Source: Pseudobdellovibrionaceae bacterium
GTDB lineage: Bacteria > Bdellovibrionota > Bdellovibrionia > Bdellovibrionales > Bdellovibrionaceae
Direction: 5' to 3'
Assembly (NCBI GenBank): GCA_041288045.1
Contig: JBGGMM010000027.1
Location: 1 to 19,177, forward strand
Length of the DNA: 19,177 nucleotides
Shown: piece by piece, positions 3,687 through 15,207 of the stretch
Layout of the letters: each line of letters begins with the position of its first letter
Position numbering within the stretch: the first letter of the stretch is position 1
The notes under the pieces: generated by a model
Database searches by the model: none
What the model was told of the DNA's origin: nothing
Seen by the model: only the letters and a program-made list of their open reading frames with translations
Program-made: the position numbers and the translations under genes

Positions 3687-3923
3687 ATGAAACGCGCACT
3701 TACTTTTTTGGCCCTGACAATTTCGGCATCTTCTGTTTTCGCTTATCCAAACGCAATTCAGTGCAATGCGACTGAAGAATGCCCTGTGGTTTCTGAAAGC
3801 TACAAAAAGGCCCGCAAGGTCTGCAATCAGTCTCTGATGATGACAGTTCCTGTTTATCAACAGCAGGAAGATGGCAACAATAAGCACCTTGGCTACACTT
3901 GCGTTCAGTTTAGCGGCAATTAA
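3687..3923 (+). CDS. Small secreted four-cysteine protein (78 aa)
   Basis: GGAGG SD; signal peptide MKRALTFLALTISASSVFA; 4 Cys in the mature part. Confidence 0.85.
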   Translation: MKRALTFLALTISASSVFAYPNAIQCNATEECPVVSESYKKARKVCNQSLMMTVPVYQQQEDGNNKHLGYTCVQFSGN

Positions 3924-3965: not shown

Positions 3966-4076
3966 GCTTCATCAGTCTCTTTTTTTCTTTACAATCCCGA
4001 CCTCGCTCCAAGCATTGCTAAAAAAATTGGCTTCCCCTTGAGTTCATCTGCAAAGCATGGGAACCTAAAAGCAATC

Positions 4077-4544
4077 ATGATCCCTTTTGAAGCCAAATTA
4101 AAATCCACTCCTGTTGAGCACATTTTGACTCTGAGCGGTCCATTGGATGAAAGCGCCGAGCTTCCCAAATTGAAAGAGAAAAAAAATATCCGTGTGCATT
4201 TGGGCCGACTGACACACGTCAGTTCGCATGGAATCAAGATCTGGTGCAAATGGCTGCTTGAACATGACCAATGGCCAGCCATTTTGCTGGAGGAATGCCC
4301 ACATCTGTTTGTGCGAAATTTTTCAAGCCTGAAGGGCTTTCTCACCCCCAATGTCAGCGTGCTTTCTTTTTACGTCCCTTTTTACAGTGAAGCGACGGAT
4401 GAAGCCAAAGACGTTTTGTTTTTACGCGAGAGAGAGTTCAAAAAAGATGGCAGCTTGAACATTCCAAAGGTCATGGACAGCCGGGGCCAAGCGATGGAAA
4501 TGGATGTCATTGAAGCTAAGTACTTCTCCTTTCTCAAGCCGTGA
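4077..4544 (+). CDS. STAS-like (anti-anti-sigma-type) protein, copy 1, lacking the Cys motifs
   Basis: LTLSGPLD...LGRLTHVSSHGIKIW resembles the STAS beta-strand and the phospho-Ser loop (SpoIIAA-type DSSG); paralogous to 11501-11995. ATG 4077 preferred over TTG 4038. Confidence 0.7.
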   Translation: MIPFEAKLKSTPVEHILTLSGPLDESAELPKLKEKKNIRVHLGRLTHVSSHGIKIWCKWLLEHDQWPAILLEECPHLFVRNFSSLKGFLTPNVSVLSFYVPFYSEATDEAKDVLFLREREFKKDGSLNIPKVMDSRGQAMEMDVIEAKYFSFLKP

Positions 4545-5395
4545 AAACCGTTCTTGACCTTTACTCACATCTTTTCACTTCCACTCAGCTCAAAGCTTTT
4601 CAAAGTTTTTTCCAGCAAGTACAGGTTCTTAAAATTCCAGAGGACCTGCAATTGCTCCAGCAAGCCGAACCCAGAACCACAGTCGTCATCATTGAGAAAA
4701 TGTCGCCCTATCTGGCAATGAAAATGATGGAAAGAGGATTTGCTCATTGCCTTTCCCCCGAAAGAGAGGACTTCAGGCAGGAGCTTTTGGCTTCGTGTCT
4801 ACTGCTCTTGAAACCAAGACTTCTGCTGGCCAGTCCATCGCCATTTTTTCTCAGCAGCTTGGCCTCTTCAAGTGAGGATTTAGAGAAATTTCCGCCGCTT
4901 TTGACATTCCCCGTTCGCTGGAGCCGAGAGAAGCCTGCATTTCTTGAAGCCCTGGGAAAATATTTGCAACAACAGAAAAAAACTCAAGCCATTGAGCCTT
5001 TGATTCATCAAATCGCCGATGAACTTTTCGCTAACGCGATTGCAGCAGCAGAAAAATCAACAAAACAAGAATCCATTGCAACAACGGGCGCTCCCATCCG
5101 TTTTTTCTGCGCAGTTGATGAAAAAAGTTTGATGCTGGGCTGTGAGGATTCTTTCGGGACTTTGGACCGGAAGTCTCTTTTGGCGCATTTGTCTCGGATT
5201 TACTCGTCTGAAACGACAGCCCCGAACCTCGATGAAGGTGCCACTGGCCTAGGCCTGAAGCTGGTCATTGATAATTCTGCCAGCGTTTCGGTTTATTGCA
5301 AAAAAGAAACACAAACCATCGTTGCCTGCACTTTGCTCCTGAAAGGCATTCGAGCCAATGCCAAGCCAAATAAGCATTTTCATTTGATGATTTGA
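4541..5395 (+). CDS. RsbW/SpoIIAB-like GHKL ATPase (putative Ser kinase/anti-sigma), copy 1
   Basis: N-box IADELFANAI, G1-like GCEDSFGTL, G2 GATGLGLKLV; no recognisable H-box; GTGA overlap with the upstream stop. Confidence 0.75.
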   Translation: MKTVLDLYSHLFTSTQLKAFQSFFQQVQVLKIPEDLQLLQQAEPRTTVVIIEKMSPYLAMKMMERGFAHCLSPEREDFRQELLASCLLLLKPRLLLASPSPFFLSSLASSSEDLEKFPPLLTFPVRWSREKPAFLEALGKYLQQQKKTQAIEPLIHQIADELFANAIAAAEKSTKQESIATTGAPIRFFCAVDEKSLMLGCEDSFGTLDRKSLLAHLSRIYSSETTAPNLDEGATGLGLKLVIDNSASVSVYCKKETQTIVACTLLLKGIRANAKPNKHFHLMI

Positions 5396-8300
5396 ATTCA
5401 GTTCTGAAGCTCTTTTTCCGAAAGGAATTCGGGAGTTTCGCACACATGAGTATCGCTGCATCTCAAAAATCCCGACCTTCGATTTCAATTCCTGATGTTG
5501 AGATTTTAAGTCTTCTCGGTGAAGGCCGACAAAGCTATGTTTACAAAGCCCGGAAAGGCAGCCAGCTTTTGGCGGTCAAAATTCAAAAAATACGCGACCC
5601 CAATTTGCAAAAATCGGAAGCCATCCACTTTAAAAGAGAAGCCGCTTTTCTTTCTTCGCTCCGCGATCCAGGTCTGCCAGAAATTTTCGATGTTGGTGAG
5701 ATCAACGACACTGCCTTTTTTATTGAGCAGTACATCGAAGGCACCAATCTTCGACAGATTCTCGATCGAAAACAAATGCCGGCCTCTCAGATTGTTTCAC
5801 TGGCGAAAGAACTCAGCCGGGTGTTTGTTAAAATCCACCGGCATGGGCTTGTGCACCGGGATATCAAATCCAAAAATATTCTTATCGACTCTTCGGGAAA
5901 ACCCTATCTGATCGATTTCGGTTTGGCTCAGAGAGCAGACCCGAAAAAAACCACTGAAGAAATGTCAGGCACATTTCTTTATAGCTCTCCCGAACAAGCC
6001 GGAGTGATCGATCGGGCGATCGATGCCAGAAGCGACCTTTACTCTTTTGGTGTCGTTCTGTTTGAATGCGCCACCGGTCAAGTGCCCTTTCAATCCACCA
6101 ATCTCGCTGAGCTTGTGAAAATGCATGCCACGCAAAAACCAAAGTGCATTCGCGAAAGCCGTCCGGATTTGCCTCTGGCTCTGGATGCCATCATTCAAAA
6201 ACTTTTGGCCAAAGATCCCGATGACCGCTACCCCTCAGCCGAGAGCCTCTTGTTGGATTTGGAAAATTTCTCTGAAATCGAAAGAGATCTCAGCAATGGA
6301 CAATCCTTTGTTTTGGGAACTGAAGATCCGCTCGAGGTTTTTCATGACTCAGGTCACTTGGTCGGTCGACGGGAAGAACTTTCCCAGATTTTAAAATCCT
6401 GGGAAAGAGTGCAGACCCAGGGTGGCACTGTGCTGATGGTTGAGGGGAATTCCGGAATGGGAAAGACCCGCTTGATCCGAGAGCTGATGAAAGTTGCGCA
6501 AGCCGAAGGAGCTTTGATTCTCAACGGGAAATGCAGTCAAGGGGGAAATCCCCTTCCCTTTTCACCACTTCGAGAAGCAGTTGAAAGTTATCTCTACCGA
6601 TCAAAGAAATTTTCGCCCACTGAAAAAAATGAAAGCGACCTTCGCTTTTTGGCGGCAGTTGGCGAAAATGCTTCTCTGTTAAAAAATTTAACCCCGAAAC
6701 TAAAAGAACTTCTTGCTGACAAGGCCGGATCCGAAGCTTCTACCCACGCCAGCCTAGATCAATTTTATTCGGTGCTGGTCGACTTTCTTTTGGCCCTGCC
6801 GCGAGAGTTCGGCAAAGTGGTGCTGTTTATCGATGACGTTCAGTGGCTCGATGATGCCACACGAACGATCTTCACTTATCTGCAAGACCGCCTGGCACAA
6901 AGCAAAATGCTGATTGTCTGCACCAGCCGCAATGAACAAGAAAGTTCACAAGGCCTTGAGACTTTCAAAAAAGAAGTAAAGAAAATCCTCAGTGCCCAGT
7001 TTTCCCTAAAAGCCTTCAGTGACAAAGAGACTGAAGAACTGATTTCATTGCAACTGGGCGGACAAAAAATTTCGCAAGAATTGGTTCAACAAATTCAAAC
7101 TCGCAGCGGCGGAAATCCCTTTGCCGTAGGAGAGTTTGTCAGATCCTTGATGGATGCCGGATTTCTCACTCCGTCTTGGGGGACTTGGAAATTGGATCAA
7201 GCTGGCCTTCAGCAGACCGAGCTTTCTCAAAACGTCATTGATCTTGTTTTGAAACGAGCGGCTTCTTTGAACTCTCAGACCAAATCCCTGCTTTCAACGG
7301 CAGGCCTTTGGGGACCGAAATTTCCAATTTCTGTCATGGCAGAAATCTGCGAATTGACCCCGAAAGCCAAAGCCATTTGCATTGCTGAGGCTTTGCAGGC
7401 CCACTTGATTGAGCCCACCAATCATTCCGATGAGTTTTCTTTCATTCATGACCGTGTTCAAGAGGCCTTTGCGGCTTCTTTGAGTCCAGAGCAAAAAACA
7501 AAAATCCATCAACAAATGGCTGAATGTTTGGAGCGACAGCGTTCTTCTGATGATGAGTATGTCTATGAGCTTGCTGATCATTACAGATTGGGATTGACAG
7601 CTAAAAATCCGCAGAGAGTTTTTGAAACCCATGTTCAAGCCGGAAAAAAAGCTCTATCCGAATTTGCCGCAGATGAGGCCTTTCATTATTTCTTAAGAGC
7701 GCAAGACTTTGCCCTGGAAAAAAATCTGCCCATGAATTTGGAATTTAAAAATTTGCGGGCCGAATCCTGCGTTTTGATCGGCCGCTATGCAGAGGCTTTG
7801 CAACTCTTGCATGAAATTCTTGAAAATTCAAAAGAGCCCATTGCTCGAGCCAAAGTCCACAACCGTCTGGCTCGACTCTATCAATTTCGAAGAGAAATCA
7901 AAAAGTCCTGGTCGCACGCTCTGGAAGGTCTGGATGAATTGGGGCTTCGAAAAAAAGGCCGTCCGATTCGCAACGCACTTCGCATTTTATTTGATATTTT
8001 TCGCGGCGTTTTGATGGATCAACTGTCGATTCATCTGAAACCTGCCCGTGGCGAAATGCTCGAAAAACATCAGATCTCGACAGAGCTTTATGAAGTCGGC
8101 GGAGTGACGGCTTATTTCCTGAATGACCCAATCAAATTTCTCTCGGTCATGCCACCGAGCATTTATCCCGCCATGCGAATCGGGATCTCAAAAGAATTGG
8201 CTATTGCCTATGCTGCTTTCTCCGGCGGGCTTGGCGTGTTGGGTTTTAAGAAATTAGCTCAGCAGTACGTCAAGAAAAGCCTGGCTGTGGCCACTCAGAT

Positions 8301-10656
8301 CGGTGATCCCTTTGTCACTGTTCGCTCCAAGCTCTTAGGCATTTACTGTCAGCAATTTGCCGGAGAGTGGACGGAAGCCCGCAAGAACATTGCTGAAGTT
8401 TTACAAAATCAAAGCCGTTATTTAGAGGGCAACGATTTTATGAATGCCACTTATGGCGGCACCAGTTGCATGACCATGCTCTCAGGACATCAGAATGAAA
8501 GTCTCAGAGCCATGGAAAAGGCCATCGATTTTCTGGGACGAGTGGAGCCCGATGAAGAGCGAAGGCAGGGCCACCCGTTTCTGAGCACACTTTTACAGAT
8601 CTATCCTGGTTTTGGTCGATTGGCCGAAGCCTCGATCTACCTGAAAGCAATTCAAAAAATTGTCCAATCCTCTCCAGATGATATTTGCGGAGGCCTTGGA
8701 TTCAACGGCTCTTTGCTTGGTTTTTACTATGAGACTAAGGAAACCAGCCACCTCATCGATGAAGCCATTGAAAGAGGTCAAAAAATCACTCCAGTGCATC
8801 CACCACTTTGCATGCCCCATTTTAAATTTTTCTACGTTTTTGCTGCCTATGCGAGATTCAATCAGTATTTTCTGGCCAGCACGGAATCCGAAAAACAAAT
8901 CGCCTATCAAAAACTGATTCTGCAGTGGAAAGAGCTTCGCTATGCTGGTCGAATGCCCAGCTGGACGCCGATTCGAGCTCACGCACTGGTGATCGAAGGC
9001 ATCATTGCCAGTATTGCTGGCAATGGGAAAAAAGCTCACTGGGCTTTTTCAAAAGCTCTTCTCTGGGCTGAAAAACATGATCTACCCCTGGTGCAATATG
9101 AAGTCTATCGTCACAAAGCTCATCTGCTGCAAAGCCAAGCCCATCAGGAACAGGCACTTCTTTCTGCCCAGCTCGCATTGAAAATCGCTCTTCAATACAA
9201 TTGGCAGCAAAAAATCACATGGATTCAACAAGAGTTTGGAATCGAGCCCCAGTCATTCAACTCTTCCCAAGAGCCGACAAACGGATTGTCTTTGAGCAGC
9301 TCACACGTTTCAAACACTTCCTTGGGGCGAAACCTTAGACGGGATCAGCAATTGAGCAGTTTGATTCAGATTTGCATGCACTCAATCGGACTGACTGACG
9401 TCAAGGATCAAGCTCGGCAACTTCTGGATGATATCATCGAATTCTTTGGCGCTGACCGTGGCTTTATTTTCTTGAACCCAAATGCGGACATTCAAAAAAG
9501 TGAATTTCTGTTGGGCCGAACGATGAATCAGGGCGAGCTTTTACAAGCCGAAAATTTTAGCACAAAAGCCATCAGCCGAGCTTATGAATTAAAAGCTCCT
9601 TTTATTCTCAACCATGATAACACCGACAATCCTGATACTTCAGAAAGTGTCATTTCCTTTCAGCTTCGAAGTATTTTGGTCGCACCTCTGATTTTTCGGG
9701 AACAAGTGGTAGGTTTGATTTACTTGGATAATAAAGTGGTCAAGGGACTTTTCCAGGAAAGAGATAAGCTTTTTATTTCATCTGCCGCCAATATCTTGGC
9801 CGCTGCCATCGAAGCTGCCCGCAGCGTGAAAGTTGAGCTTGAGAAAAAAGATCTTGAAAGAGATTTGCAGCTCACTGGCGCTGTTCAAGGTCTTCTGCTT
9901 CCGCAGGAGAGTCATTTTCAATCCGGGTCCTGCCAGGTCAGCGGTTATTTCAAATCAGCCGCTCAAGCAGGAGGAGATTGGTGGTGGTCCGAGACCCTGC
10001 CAGATGGCTCTTTGCTGGTCTTTTTAGGAGATGTGACTGGACATGGGGCCGCCAGCGCCATGGTGACAGCGATTGTCGCTGGCATCTATTACACGGTTCG
10101 AAACACCCTTCTCACTGAAGAGGTCTTTCAAAAACAGCCAAAAGATTTTGATCCACTTTCAGCGATCGAACAGTTTTTGTATTTAGCAGATCAAAACCTC
10201 AGTTCGCATGTTGAAGGACAGTTTTTCATGGCCTATACGGCCCTTCATTTGAGCACGACCAACGAATTAACCCTTTGGGGAGCCGGCTCCCCGCCGGTGA
10301 TTTGTGTCACCGAAGAGGAAGTGTCGCCAGAAAACATCATTTGCTATGGCCATCTTTTGGGCTCTGGCAAAGTGGGAGAGAATCAGAGACTCACTAAAAG
10401 CACATTTAGGGGTCGTTTGCTGCTTTATTCGGACGGTTTGCTCGAAGTTCCCGTGAGCGCCAATCGACTTTTCAGTGAAAACAGCTTGGCTCGGATGACA
10501 TCTTCAAGAAAAGACCAGGAACTTTTGGTTTTTCAAAAAGAAGTGGCTTCCAAGGTCGAGGAAAATTTAAAAATCAGTGCTTTGAAAGATGACGTGAGTT
10601 TCGTTATGATTGACAATAGAAACATTCAAATCATTAGCCAAAAGAAAGTATCATGA
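5392..10656 (+). CDS. Multidomain signalling protein: Hanks-type Ser/Thr kinase + STAND-type (AAA_16-like) ATPase + helical/TPR-like region + GAF + SpoIIE/RsbU-type PP2C phosphatase
   Basis: Kinase: LGEGRQSYV, LAVK, HRDIKSKN, DFG, GTFLYSSPEQ, DLYSFG. ATPase: Walker A GNSGMGKT (6445-6468), Walker B LFIDDVQWLD, GGNP motif. GAF: LRSILVAPLIFREQVVGLIYLDN. PP2C: AGGDWW, GDVTGHG, YSDGL, DDVSF. Alternative start ATG 5446 with GGGAG upstream. Confidence 0.93.
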   Translation: MNSVLKLFFRKEFGSFAHMSIAASQKSRPSISIPDVEILSLLGEGRQSYVYKARKGSQLLAVKIQKIRDPNLQKSEAIHFKREAAFLSSLRDPGLPEIFDVGEINDTAFFIEQYIEGTNLRQILDRKQMPASQIVSLAKELSRVFVKIHRHGLVHRDIKSKNILIDSSGKPYLIDFGLAQRADPKKTTEEMSGTFLYSSPEQAGVIDRAIDARSDLYSFGVVLFECATGQVPFQSTNLAELVKMHATQKPKCIRESRPDLPLALDAIIQKLLAKDPDDRYPSAESLLLDLENFSEIERDLSNGQSFVLGTEDPLEVFHDSGHLVGRREELSQILKSWERVQTQGGTVLMVEGNSGMGKTRLIRELMKVAQAEGALILNGKCSQGGNPLPFSPLREAVESYLYRSKKFSPTEKNESDLRFLAAVGENASLLKNLTPKLKELLADKAGSEASTHASLDQFYSVLVDFLLALPREFGKVVLFIDDVQWLDDATRTIFTYLQDRLAQSKMLIVCTSRNEQESSQGLETFKKEVKKILSAQFSLKAFSDKETEELISLQLGGQKISQELVQQIQTRSGGNPFAVGEFVRSLMDAGFLTPSWGTWKLDQAGLQQTELSQNVIDLVLKRAASLNSQTKSLLSTAGLWGPKFPISVMAEICELTPKAKAICIAEALQAHLIEPTNHSDEFSFIHDRVQEAFAASLSPEQKTKIHQQMAECLERQRSSDDEYVYELADHYRLGLTAKNPQRVFETHVQAGKKALSEFAADEAFHYFLRAQDFALEKNLPMNLEFKNLRAESCVLIGRYAEALQLLHEILENSKEPIARAKVHNRLARLYQFRREIKKSWSHALEGLDELGLRKKGRPIRNALRILFDIFRGVLMDQLSIHLKPARGEMLEKHQISTELYEVGGVTAYFLNDPIKFLSVMPPSIYPAMRIGISKELAIAYAAFSGGLGVLGFKKLAQQYVKKSLAVATQIGDPFVTVRSKLLGIYCQQFAGEWTEARKNIAEVLQNQSRYLEGNDFMNATYGGTSCMTMLSGHQNESLRAMEKAIDFLGRVEPDEERRQGHPFLSTLLQIYPGFGRLAEASIYLKAIQKIVQSSPDDICGGLGFNGSLLGFYYETKETSHLIDEAIERGQKITPVHPPLCMPHFKFFYVFAAYARFNQYFLASTESEKQIAYQKLILQWKELRYAGRMPSWTPIRAHALVIEGIIASIAGNGKKAHWAFSKALLWAEKHDLPLVQYEVYRHKAHLLQSQAHQEQALLSAQLALKIALQYNWQQKITWIQQEFGIEPQSFNSSQEPTNGLSLSSSHVSNTSLGRNLRRDQQLSSLIQICMHSIGLTDVKDQARQLLDDIIEFFGADRGFIFLNPNADIQKSEFLLGRTMNQGELLQAENFSTKAISRAYELKAPFILNHDNTDNPDTSESVISFQLRSILVAPLIFREQVVGLIYLDNKVVKGLFQERDKLFISSAANILAAAIEAARSVKVELEKKDLERDLQLTGAVQGLLLPQESHFQSGSCQVSGYFKSAAQAGGDWWWSETLPDGSLLVFLGDVTGHGAASAMVTAIVAGIYYTVRNTLLTEEVFQKQPKDFDPLSAIEQFLYLADQNLSSHVEGQFFMAYTALHLSTTNELTLWGAGSPPVICVTEEEVSPENIICYGHLLGSGKVGENQRLTKSTFRGRLLLYSDGLLEVPVSANRLFSENSLARMTSSRKDQELLVFQKEVASKVEENLKISALKDDVSFVMIDNRNIQIISQKKVS

Positions 10657-11516
10657 GGCCAGTTCAAATGATTCCCAGTTTAGAAATTTTCGAGCTTACA
10701 ACGGCAGATGACCCCTCGAATTTAAATACAACAGCCCCGATCGTGGTCTGTGATTCACTGGGTTCCGAGTACGTACTTTCGCTTTTTTCTCGTTCCAAAA
10801 TTCAGCACATCATCCAAAAATCCAATCTCAATCACCAATCTGAAATTCAGATTTCAGCGACGATGCTGCAGTCACCAGATCAATTTCGCCAGTTTCCTCT
10901 CTCGACAATTCTCGGTGTTCACAATCCGACTTCTGATTCCGAAGCTCAATTGGCCGAAGTCAACCACCAGCTCTCGCATCCGGACGAAAAATCTTTGGTG
11001 CTGGATCAAATTGAAAAGTGGGTGGCTGAATCCAATCACCAAAGATCCATTGCCAATGATGTTCGCTTGATCGCCGATGAACTGATTTCCAATTCGATTT
11101 TCAATGCACCCTATGTTGATTTTGAAAATTCTTTTTCAGGTCCCACTCGAGATAAAAATAAAATCTCGATTGATCCGGCAAAAAAACCTCGGGTTTTCAT
11201 CGGCCGTGATCACGACCGCTTGATCGTCGGCTGCCAGGATTTTTATGGAACTCTGAATGTCAACCGAGTGATTGAGCGCATCCGCATCTGCTATGAGTCT
11301 AATCCCGGGCAAGTGATGAATTTTGGGACCGGAGGCGCAGGCATTGGCTCGTTCATGGTCTTTGATTCTTGCTCAAGTCTCTACATCGCTGTGGAAGTTG
11401 GCGTTTCGACGACGATCTGCTGTGCTCTCCCTTTGAAAATGTCGGCAGTTCGCCGCAAGAAAATCCCGAAGAATCTGCATATCTCATCTGAGGAGTCCAA
11501 ATGGAAGCAAAAGTAA
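10653..11516 (+). CDS. RsbW/SpoIIAB-like GHKL ATPase (putative Ser kinase/anti-sigma), copy 2
   Basis: IADELISNSIFNAP, GCQDFYGTL, GAGIGSFMV; C-terminal PKNLHI matches PNKHFHL of copy 1; ATGA overlap with the upstream stop. Confidence 0.78.
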   Translation: MRPVQMIPSLEIFELTTADDPSNLNTTAPIVVCDSLGSEYVLSLFSRSKIQHIIQKSNLNHQSEIQISATMLQSPDQFRQFPLSTILGVHNPTSDSEAQLAEVNHQLSHPDEKSLVLDQIEKWVAESNHQRSIANDVRLIADELISNSIFNAPYVDFENSFSGPTRDKNKISIDPAKKPRVFIGRDHDRLIVGCQDFYGTLNVNRVIERIRICYESNPGQVMNFGTGGAGIGSFMVFDSCSSLYIAVEVGVSTTICCALPLKMSAVRRKKIPKNLHISSEESKWKQK

Positions 11517-11995
11517 TCTCCACGCTTCAAGATCTCAATCTCAATGTTTCCATCAAGGGTCAAATCACAGCCGAATCGGATCTACCCACTCTTCAACAGA
11601 TGCCTATTGAAAAATTGGTTTTCAATGTCGAAGGAATTGAATACATCAATTCTGGCGGAGTGAGAAAATGGATTCTCTGGATGGAACAAGCCAAAAGTCT
11701 TTTTCCTCAGGCCACCTTTCGCTTTGAGGGAGTGCCTTCAGTTTTGATCAAGCAAGCGGCCACCATTCAAAATTTTCTACCGCCCGGATCCTCCATTGAC
11801 TCTTTCACAGTCCCCTACTTTTGCGAAAGCTGCTCCACCAGCTGCGAAAAAACCTTTCGCAAAGGTCAAGACTTCAAGCTCCCCGTCGACCGCCAAGCCT
11901 TTATTAAAATCCTCACAAGCGCCACTTGCCCCACCTGCAAAGGCCCACTTGAAATCGACGCTATCCCGGAACACTACGTGCTCTCGATCAACTAA
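11501..11995 (+). CDS. STAS-like protein with C-terminal CxxC...CxxC putative zinc ribbon, copy 2
   Basis: VSIKGQIT...VEGIEYINSGGVRKW (Ser51 in the STAS phospho-loop position); CESC at 11822 and CPTC at 11927; GAGGAG SD inside the upstream gene. Confidence 0.78.
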   Translation: MEAKVISTLQDLNLNVSIKGQITAESDLPTLQQMPIEKLVFNVEGIEYINSGGVRKWILWMEQAKSLFPQATFRFEGVPSVLIKQAATIQNFLPPGSSIDSFTVPYFCESCSTSCEKTFRKGQDFKLPVDRQAFIKILTSATCPTCKGPLEIDAIPEHYVLSIN

Positions 11996-12249: not shown

Positions 12250-12753
12250 ATGAAACAAAAAATCGACTCCAAAATAAAAAACATGAAATCATTCGGTGGT
12301 GAGCTTCTGAAGGGAAAAAGAAAAGCAAAAAGGCCGCTTTCTACCAAGCAGCCATTGCATCTGATCTTGAAAGCCTGTGAGAAATTAGTTTTTCCTCCAG
12401 GTAATCTCTCTTTGGAAAAACTCATTCACAATCAGGCTCGGAAATTTAATGTGAAAATTTATGAGCTTGCCATCAATTGGAGCCACATTCATACGATCAT
12501 CAAGATCAAAGAGCGAGAGAACTACAACCAGTTCATTCGCTCTCTTTGCTCAATTCTGGCTGCAAAAGTCAGGGCGAAAAAACCTCACTTGAAAACTCTT
12601 TTCACCCTTCGCCCCTTTACTCGCATCATTTCATGGGGTCGGGACTTTAAATCTTTGTTGAATTACCTCATCATCAATCAAATGGAAGCTCGAGGTCTGA
12701 TGTCTAGACCGAAAAAGAAATCTCGAGCGCGAACTTCCTTACAAATAATATAA
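12250..12753 (+). mobile_element. Y1 HUH transposase (IS200/IS605 TnpA or REP-associated tyrosine transposase-like), 167 aa
   Basis: HLIL strand, HUH motif SHIHTII, C-terminal helix LLNYLIIN carrying the candidate catalytic Tyr; very basic; no tnpB adjacent. Confidence 0.75.
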
Positions 12754-12783: not shown

Positions 12784-13221
12784 TTATGAAGCGAACTCCT
12801 TCAAGAACTCTCCGTAGCCTTCTTTTTCCAGATCCTCTTTAGGGATGAATCGCAGGGCCGCCGAGTTCATGCAGTAGCGAAGACCGCTTGGCGCTGGGCC
12901 ATCGTTAAATAAGTGTCCCAGGTGGCAATTGCCTTTTTTGCTTCGCACTTCGGTTCTGGACATCGAGAATTTTTGGTCGTTTTTTTCGACGAGGTTTTCT
13001 TTTTTTAATGGCTTGGTGAAACTGGGCCAACCTGTTCCGGATTCGAATTTATCTTTTGAACTGAAAAGCGGTTCGCCTGAAATCAAATCCACATAAATGC
13101 CTTCGCGGTGGTTGTCCCAGTACAGATTGCGAAATGGCGGCTCAGTTCCATCTCTCTGAGTGACTTCGAATTGCAAATCTGTGAGCCCTGATGCTGAATG
13201 TGATTTTTCATCCTTGTTCAT
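12784..13221 (-). CDS. msrB: Peptide-methionine (R)-S-oxide reductase MsrB
   Basis: [38 protein letters not shown] motifs; AGGAGG SD before ATG 13221. Confidence 0.97.
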
Positions 13222-13307
13222 TGGCAAATCCTCCTGCACTGATGATTTTAGCAAAGGTGATGCCGAAATGAATTTTCCTTGAAAGCTTTTCCTGTTATTG
13301 AGAATTC

Positions 13308-13827: not shown

Positions 13828-13857
13828 AGGTTAAGATATGCTAGCACTCCTTGTCAA
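13828..13857 (-). promoter_or_regulatory. Candidate sigma70-type promoter for the 77-aa ORF
   Basis: On the minus strand TTGACA (13857-13852), 18 nt spacer, TAACCT (13833-13828). Confidence 0.45.
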
Positions 13858-14339
13858 ATTTCTTTTGTTTTTTGTCGGCAAAATTTCCTGAGAGAAGATA
13901 ACAATTGAAAACTGCTGAGGGGCTTTGAAATAAAATCATCGAAGCCAGTTTCAAATGCCAATTTTCGCACCACCTGCTGGCAATCCGCTGTCACAGCAAT
14001 GATGGGTTTTTTATAACCTTTGTGTCTGAGGTGCGCAGCTGCGGTGATTCCATCCAAAACCGGCATGTGTAGATCCATGAGGACAGCATCAAAATCCCCA
14101 CGCAGCGCCTTGTCGATAGCTTCCAGACCATTGATGGCAAACTCGACCTGCGCTCCTGTCTTTTGCAAAAAGAGACTTTCCAGAGTGCGATTGTCCTGAA
14201 TGTCATCGACAACCAAAAACCGGCTCCCATTGAAGTTGGATGTGTCCTTTTGTCTGATCTCGGCCAATCTGCCTCCTGAATCGTTCCAAGCTGCCCGAGA
14301 GAGGCGATGAGCCGCGCCAGGAACCAGCTTCGCTTTCAC
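13854..14339 (-). CDS. Stand-alone response regulator receiver-domain protein
   Basis: LVVDD, LMDLHMPVLDG (phosphoacceptor Asp), PIIAVTA, FISKP; true start uncertain. Confidence 0.9.
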   Translation of the reverse strand: MKAKLVPGAAHRLSRAAWNDSGGRLAEIRQKDTSNFNGSRFLVVDDIQDNRTLESLFLQKTGAQVEFAINGLEAIDKALRGDFDAVLMDLHMPVLDGITAAAHLRHKGYKKPIIAVTADCQQVVRKLAFETGFDDFISKPLSSFQLLSSLRKFCRQKTKEI

Positions 14340-14817: not shown

Positions 14818-14823
14818 GGAGTG

Positions 14824-15207
14824 ATGTCGCCAGGAAAACTCCGTCACTCCATTCTTATCGTCGACGACGATCTGCTTTTACTTGAAACCGTTGTTGAACT
14901 TTTTCAAGGTGAAGGCTGGACCGTTTATCAAGCTAGCACCGTGAAAGAGGCCATGCGGATTTTGAAAGAAATCACAGTGGATGTGATTTTATCAGATATT
15001 CGCATGCCCACAGAAGGTGGCTTTGAATTGGCGACACAGACTCGAGACCTTCGAGCTGAAAATAAAAATGTCCATCTTTTTTTCATGACCGGTTTTACCG
15101 ATTATCCAGAATCTGTGCTTCTCTCGCTAGGAGCTCGGGGAATCATTTACAAACCTTTTCACCCGGGTGAGCTGCTAGAAAAAATCACCGGGGTTCTCAA
15201 AAAATAA
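14824..15207 (+). CDS. CheY-like single-domain response regulator
   Basis: ILIVDDD, ILSDIRMPTEGG, FMTG, IYKPF; start is ATG 14824 or GTG 14821. Confidence 0.92.
   Translation: MSPGKLRHSILIVDDDLLLLETVVELFQGEGWTVYQASTVKEAMRILKEITVDVILSDIRMPTEGGFELATQTRDLRAENKNVHLFFMTGFTDYPESVLLSLGARGIIYKPFHPGELLEKITGVLKK

Follow-up and report, generated by a model that had tools for sequence, protein, structure and literature searches.

We have analysed a stretch of 19,177 nucleotides (the window), contig C27 (JBGGMM010000027.1) of assembly G000 (GCA_041288045.1; 2.9 Mb, 83% complete), from a Pseudobdellovibrionaceae bacterium, a predatory-type soil bacterium; the relatives of the window proteins are found in Bdellovibrionota. 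Between positions 4077 and 11995 lie five open reading frames on the + strand, in the order STAS-A, GHKL-A, hub, GHKL-B and STAS-B, in which two small STAS proteins and two kinases flank a giant protein, the hub. An earlier note on this DNA had given the same genes in the same order and had read them as a mirror-ordered, duplicated partner-switching operon. We find that the locus is probably a phosphorylation-driven partner switch assembled from mobile parts, a Bdellovibrionota variant of partner switching, and that its striking symmetry, put together from old parts, is peculiar to one genome. The five genes and the regions of the hub are as follows.

4077..4544, + strand: STAS-A, STAS-like protein of 155 residues with a C-terminal extension, without zinc-ribbon cysteines; predicted phospho-acceptor Ser50; fold assigned from the family alignment
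4541..5395, + strand: GHKL-A, 284 residues, clade-A RsbW/SpoIIAB-type kinase by homology
5446..10656, + strand: hub, 1736 residues from ATG 5446 (1754 from TTG 5392)
~5500–6234, + strand: hub Hanks kinase domain (Pfam Pkinase)
~6358–6918, + strand: hub STAND domain (Pfam AAA_16)
between STAND and GAF, + strand: hub helical, TPR-like region (weak TPR matches)
~9406–9810, + strand: hub GAF domain (Pfam GAF)
10000–10614, + strand: hub PP2C/SpoIIE domain (PF07228, 68.5 bits against a cut-off of 25)
10668..11516, + strand: GHKL-B, 282 residues from ATG 10668 (287 from ATG 10653); N-terminal alpha/beta domain, then a SpoIIAB-like Bergerat fold
11501..11995, + strand: STAS-B, 164 residues; STAS fold at ~1–102, invariant Ser51, C-terminal extension with two CxxC pairs (putative zinc ribbon)

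Each gene had been said to overlap the next, and the four junction strings (GTGA 4541–4544, TTGA 5392–5395, ATGA 10653–10656 and the 16-nt overlap 11501–11516) are all present in the sequence. The 4-nt overlap of STAS-A and GHKL-A is conserved, a gap of −4 being found at 20 of the 25 same-strand STAS-to-kinase junctions listed from other loci. The overlaps on the two sides of the hub are doubtful because better start codons lie further in. For the hub, ATG 5446 has GGGAG 10 nt upstream and TTG 5392 has no such site; for GHKL-B, ATG 10668 has GAGG 9 nt upstream, the corresponding Met6 is nearly invariant in 147 rows and the database copy has 282 residues. Judged from these sequence features, translation more probably starts at ATG 5446 and ATG 10668, leaving gaps of 50 nt after GHKL-A and 11 nt after the hub. 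Contigs of run X1, probably the source sample, span both junctions, with no joints listed.

The tight packing suggests that the five genes form one operon. Scans of the window for promoters and terminators gave chance levels only (6 against 8.2 and 13 against 12.3, respectively), and a repeat search of the window found only short chance matches; among these is an 11-nt exact match (D4) between 3993–4003, upstream of STAS-A, and 5468–5478, near the hub start, which is probably due to chance. The guanine-plus-cytosine content of the five genes (0.456–0.467) matches that of the genome (0.465), so that base composition does not point to a recently inserted foreign segment.

The proteins of the switch

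Neither GHKL-A nor GHKL-B gives a HATPase Pfam or an NCBIfam match over cut-off. HATPase_c_2 scores 13.7 bits with GHKL-A against a cut-off of 27.4 (E 0.062), finds no match in GHKL-B and is matched at E ≤ 0.01 in only 9 of 147 family kinase rows. The two are nonetheless recognisable as diverged paralogues (26% identity over 168 columns, E 4e-15), as the earlier note had proposed, and belong to a family with 2645 representatives at E ≤ 0.001 and a match in 32 of 41 related genomes, that of the window included. The model of GHKL-B (predicted local distance difference test score, pLDDT, 93.6) is closest to SpoIIAB (Z 11.8, root mean square deviation (rmsd) 3.2, 139 aligned residues, ~12% identity), followed by SiaB (Z 11.5), UsfX (11.3), LvrC (10.8), RsbW (10.2) and Rv1364c (10.1); after these Z drops to 6.9, for a histidine-kinase domain. 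The modelled Bergerat fold of GHKL-B is thus closest to that of the anti-sigma kinases RsbW and SpoIIAB, and GHKL-A is a kinase of the same type by homology to the family. The N-box Glu and Asn, the Asp-x-x-Gly of G1 and the glycines of G2 are kept in both. In the 287-residue numbering of GHKL-B these include E143, N147, D196 and G199, found in all 286 family rows, and G232, found in 285; E143 is presumably the catalytic base. GHKL-A keeps E161, N165, D203, G206 and G238 and lacks ~11 residues after the N-box, among them an Arg that all 14 other rows of the clade alignment retain.

The first 95 residues of GHKL-B form a separate small domain. The structure neighbours of the protein include REC-bearing proteins, and REC-bearing clusters in the Atlas align over 248–261 residues (template modelling score, TM, 0.74). 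Comparison of the N-terminal domain with REC profiles, four times cropped and twice in full, was negative (hhalign probability < 1%), and neither GHKL-B nor its alignment found anything meaningful when searched against the sequences of solved structures. Covariation over the 286 kinase rows is weak and gives only a hint of packing between the C-terminal K-N-L-H strand and the N-terminal domain. The family also occurs in fusions: a protein of 497 residues elsewhere in the genome (L003:6228–7721, contig C77 of G000) joins a cyclic-nucleotide-binding domain to the same kinase family, and kinase-family matches of 480–510 residues are found in many related genomes.

The STAS proteins are equally hidden from profile searches. 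Neither gives a STAS Pfam match, nor any over the NCBIfam cut-off, and among 86 aligned rows (of 113 family proteins in hand) only 2 match Pfam STAS at E ≤ 0.01. STAS-A and STAS-B are 23% identical over 125 columns (E 2e-12). The model of STAS-B (pLDDT 97.2) has a STAS fold, matching the STAS domain of YchM (Z 11.1), SpoIIAA (Z 10.8, rmsd 2.9, 101 aligned), RsbV (10.1) and SiaC (8.0). Its Ser51 is the sole invariant column in the 86 rows; it aligns with the D-S motif of RsbV (family profile against 6m36_B, E 0.0025) and lies at the start of the helix after that motif, as does the phospho-acceptor serine of SpoIIAA and RsbV. STAS-A reads V-S-S-H-G around the acceptor, Ser replacing the nearly invariant Asn before Ser50. 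An extension of ~55 residues follows the STAS fold (a typical STAS-only protein has ~110 residues), and in STAS-B it carries the two CxxC pairs, which are found in 27 of the 86 rows and are absent from STAS-A.

A model of GHKL-B with ATP, Mg and STAS-B scored 0.93, and the best of three controls 0.01; the score mark used is reached by 116 of 157 solved complexes and by 2 of 215 mismatched pairs. The runs agree in at least 96% of contacts and the pLDDT of the partners is at least 90. Ser51 contacts E143 and G229–G232 and so sits in the kinase site, residues 153–155 of the STAS-B extension contact GHKL-B at 131–132 and 265–266, and GHKL-B residues 166–168, which match the loop lost from GHKL-A, contact STAS-B. 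Since similar complexes have already been solved and the model may recall them, it indicates likeness rather than binding in the cell. With these folds, the catalytic residues, the invariant serine and the complex model, the earlier assignment of the flanking proteins to STAS and GHKL folds, and of the set to the triad of PP2C phosphatase, RsbW-type kinase and STAS protein, is supported for the modelled B members and, by homology, for the A members.

The hub has the architecture first proposed for it: Pfam Pkinase, AAA_16, GAF and SpoIIE match in that order, all at or over cut-off. In 20 aligned hubs, K45, E65, HRD and DFG of the kinase and the Walker A and B motifs are conserved, and the PP2C aspartates D1511, D1529, D1663, D1715 and D1716 are invariant. 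The hub is patchily distributed among related genomes: the STAND region has a match in 37 of the 301 from the order and 19 of the 182 from the family (that of the window included), and in 3 of 7 from the genus. Among 48 annotated hubs, 26 end in PP2C, 13 have a complete end of another kind (histidine-kinase-like in the 10 whose ends were listed) and 9 are cut short or split; the output end is swappable. PP2C-ended hubs in other loci (L035, L174, L177, L178, L181, L187, L192) often adjoin lipid or secondary-metabolite genes, which are not seen in the window: fatty-acid hydroxylase, desaturase, AurF-like oxygenase, ACP-aminotransferase, phosphopantetheinyl transferase and halogenase-like genes, with DUF2306 in three loci.

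Clades, gene order and linkage in relatives

For the gene neighbourhoods we fetched 157 loci around family kinases or hubs, a set that includes a few duplicates, three loci of the genome of the window and some short pieces; loci are given by their numbers (L). In a quick tree of 114 kinase rows (duplicates and rows shorter than 230 residues removed), GHKL-A falls in a clade of 20 rows (A, support 99) and GHKL-B in a different one of 21 rows (B, support 98). The STAS tree likewise separates A and B members, and both clades are spread over many genomes. We therefore reject local duplication as the origin of the two pairs; they are old and separate, and the earlier claim that they were duplicated in place falls. 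In clade A the STAS gene comes first and the kinase second, in clade B mostly the other way round, and it is this, with the hub lying between them here, that gives the locus its mirror look.

Throughout the family the kinase gene keeps close company with a STAS gene, which adjoins 105 of 127 kinases, the window included (24 of 29 in clade A, 19 of 24 in clade B and 62 of 74 others). The commonest layout is PP2C-kinase-STAS, and 34 of the 74 kinases outside clades A and B have a PP2C gene within 3 kb. The genome has this layout too, in a third switch cassette on contig C119 (L001:3159–6352, HAMP-PP2C-kinase-STAS) with response regulators and a PAS-Hpt kinase on its flanks; a fourth STAS-like gene stands alone at L002:486–953 (contig C89).

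The two clades repeatedly occur together: 11 of the 23 other B kinases have an A kinase within 3 kb, in every case without a hub, and the arrangements are convergent (L037, L064–L067, L076), divergent (L068–L070, L079) or mixed (L071). In a sample of 301 genomes, clade A is also present in 6 of 8 other clade-B genomes, and 20 of 26 other clade-A genomes have no clade-B match at E ≤ 1e-60. A-type STAS genes follow B-type kinases in L034, L035, L038, L077 and L133, which hints at cross-pairing between the clades. Where A and B co-occur they are convergent, divergent or scattered and never mirrored around a hub; in G002, of the same genus, the hub lies on the opposite strand at a distance of 3 kb from a STAS-GHKL-B-STAS block, with ~20 kb separating GHKL-A from GHKL-B.

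None of the 157 related loci has a hub and a family kinase following one another on the same strand, and the mirror design as a conserved layout is largely refuted. That selection shaped such a design by duplication, with one sensor driving two parallel or antagonistic switches, is highly improbable in spite of the tight packing and the co-occurrence of the clades, given the age and separateness of A and B and the variety of their arrangements.

The five-gene order was not found elsewhere, but a looser link of the homologues with hubs recurs. Of the 26 PP2C-ended hubs, 7 (L035, L191, L193, L194, L195, L199, L200), distributed over four or more branches of the hub tree, have switch genes no more than 3 kb away, as have two truncated hubs (L206, L339); none of the 13 hubs with a complete non-PP2C end has one beside it. 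In the 301-genome sample, in which related genomes are not independent, clade A is found in 8 of the 21 genomes that have a complete PP2C-ended hub and in 18 of the other 279. The kinases near hub-type genes are of clade A in L199, L200, L206 and L339 and of clade B only in L035. PP2C genes other than hubs lie within 3 kb of kinases in four clade-A loci (L346, L347, L348, L350) and six clade-B loci. As the PP2C neighbours vary, the phosphatase slot looks interchangeable, with the hub as one filler. A metagenome scan with the hub alignment says little, because its patterns caught generic kinases: 77 of the 80 listed loci had a kinase match only, and the other 3 had no switch genes.

The surroundings of the five genes are as follows. 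Just upstream of STAS-A an open reading frame of 78 residues (3687–3923, +) has a signal-peptide-like start and four cysteines. Downstream of STAS-B, after 255 nt, lies an IS200/IS605-like Y1 transposase gene (12250–12753, +), with four more near-full copies in the genome (85–90% amino-acid identity), several partial ones and a read depth raised about fivefold. It is followed by MsrB (12784–13254, −) and two single-domain response regulators (13854–14339, −, and 14821–15207, +).

Proposed mechanism and its alternatives

We think it probable that each kinase phosphorylates its STAS protein, that triggering of its sensor arm makes the hub undo this, and that the resulting exchange of partners flips an output encoded elsewhere. 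Each GHKL protein would bind ATP, phosphorylate its STAS partner on Ser50 (A) or Ser51 (B) and then release it. The fold and docking of this step are taken from the models of the B pair and its chemistry from analogy with SpoIIAB and RsbW. Once the kinase-STAND-TPR-GAF arm was triggered, the PP2C domain of the hub would remove the phosphate, and the dephosphorylated STAS protein would rebind its kinase and flip the output. The hub would be one of several interchangeable PP2C inputs used by this Bdellovibrionota family. We infer that it is wired to the STAS proteins and that the five genes are co-transcribed. The gene for the output probably lies outside the locus; no sigma gene is found among the scanned window proteins, four sigma-70 region-2 matches lie elsewhere in the genome, and by analogy with SiaABCD the target may be other than a sigma factor.

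Several observations weigh against this reading. No switch gene is seen in the DNA fetched (with uneven flanks) for 19 of the 26 PP2C-ended hubs, among them L173, the closest hub in the tree (38% identity). Of the other kinases, 22 of 28 in clade A and 17 of 23 in clade B, some with short flanks, lack a PP2C gene within 3 kb, and other PP2C genes in the genome (C119, C227 and, weakly, C9) could act instead. Both members of the A pair deviate from the family at conserved positions. Finally, kinship among the linked loci makes the counts overstate their independence.

The five genes might also be neighbours by chance in a variable region, the hub serving other substrates (for example itself, or lipid or secondary-metabolite genes in other genomes) and the switches using other phosphatases. 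The order is unique to this genome (0 of 157 loci), a multi-copy insertion element is close by and the relatives of the hub often adjoin genes of the kinds named. We nevertheless regard this as unlikely, since the gaps on both sides of the hub are 50 nt or less, and both the restriction of switch genes to PP2C-ended hubs (7 of 26 against 0 of 13) and, with the caution about kinship, the enrichment of clade A in their genomes argue for a link.

It is likewise improbable that the locus is a two-tier cascade like RsbS-RsbT-RsbU-RsbV-RsbW, in which GHKL-A, freed from STAS-A, would bind and activate the hub, and the hub would act only on STAS-B. The first three gene types and their order are those of rsbS-rsbT-rsbU, the kinases near hub-type genes are mostly of clade A, and GHKL-A lacks the Arg-bearing loop whose equivalent in GHKL-B contacts the STAS protein in the model. 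On the other side, A and B cassettes occur together without a hub in 11 of 23 other B loci, the RsbU N-terminal family is not among the best 25 of the 28 Pfam matches of the hub, and the A-type STAS genes after B-type kinases in five loci blur the tiers.

A broader extension of the phosphorylation-driven switch is speculative, and as a whole doubtful. Bdellovibrionota would use a sigma-independent two-channel switch, a four-protein unit of A and B with cross-talk, in which the zinc ribbon of STAS-B could sense redox state or metal and the eroded GHKL-A could be an activator or decoy. An NLR-like kinase-STAND-TPR-GAF protein detecting a molecule derived from prey or phage would plug in as the phosphatase input, and the window would be the only place with all five parts in one operon.

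The mirror order itself is of little importance. The main additions made here are the recurring pairing of A and B and the finding that switch genes are linked with PP2C-ended hubs. Should the hub indeed dephosphorylate these STAS proteins, this would provide a substrate for the widespread and unexplained class of giant kinase-STAND-GAF-PP2C proteins, and would also define a large signalling family in predatory bacteria (the 2645 representatives above) that Pfam has missed. With all five proteins encoded in one locus, a small in vitro system could show how far paralogous switches are insulated from each other or cross-talk.

Comparison with known systems

A literature search, with most subscription papers outside its reach, found no description of this Bdellovibrionota family. 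The triad of PP2C phosphatase, kinase and STAS protein is standard partner switching (PMC8256260). The sigB operon of B. subtilis runs rsbR-rsbS-rsbT-rsbU-rsbV-rsbW-sigB-rsbX, with RsbT activating RsbU (PMC11821858); RsbS is a STAS protein and RsbT a kinase (PMC9237128). The statement in the earlier note that no two-switch layout of this kind had been characterised was therefore too strong, since rsbS to rsbW read STAS-kinase-phosphatase-STAS-kinase (PMC11821858). In both systems two STAS/kinase pairs have a phosphatase gene between them and the serine is conserved, and RsbW, RsbV and RsbS are among the top fold matches of the models. Here, however, the second pair is reversed, and the locus in the window has no sigma, RsbR-like or RsbX-like gene. 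The phosphatase has a kinase-STAND-TPR-GAF arm, the kinases an extra N-terminal domain and the STAS proteins a C-terminal extension.

SpoIIAB is the best fold match of GHKL-B and SpoIIAA among the best of STAS-B (PDB 1l0o, 1tid), with the same docking of the serine in the kinase in the models; the differences from SpoIIE-SpoIIAB-SpoIIAA lie in the low identity (~12%), the extra domains here, the lack of a known sigma target and a hub without an evident membrane anchor. The SiaABCD system of Pseudomonas (PDB 6kko) is also a switch of PP2C, kinase and STAS-like protein (SiaB and SiaC being among the matches above), and its operon partner is a diguanylate cyclase rather than a sigma factor (10.1101/674879). 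It differs in that SiaC is phosphorylated on Thr68, that there is a single switch and that no output gene is visible in the window. LvrC of Leptospira (PDB 9qih), the top Foldseek match of GHKL-B, has a comparable build of an N-terminal domain and an RsbW-like Bergerat domain in ~295 residues; its N-terminal domain is a canonical REC domain phosphorylated on D53 (PMC13269768), whereas the REC profile comparisons were negative for that of the GHKL protein.

For the hub, the architecture of Leptospira LIC12324, given as 'PK, AAA_16, GAF, SpoIIE', is identical (PMC5100919), and the passages concerned name no substrate or switch partner for it. The cyanobacterial HstK-type proteins (kinase-GAF-histidine kinase, PMC2176072) share the front end and have a histidine-kinase output, as do related hubs with histidine-kinase-like ends. 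Switch clusters of cyanobacteria come in 35 gene orders (PMC13712970), which indicates that gene order is labile in this class. Thus, both the placing of two switches around one phosphatase (rsbS-T-U-V-W) and the architecture of the hub (LIC12324) are already known.

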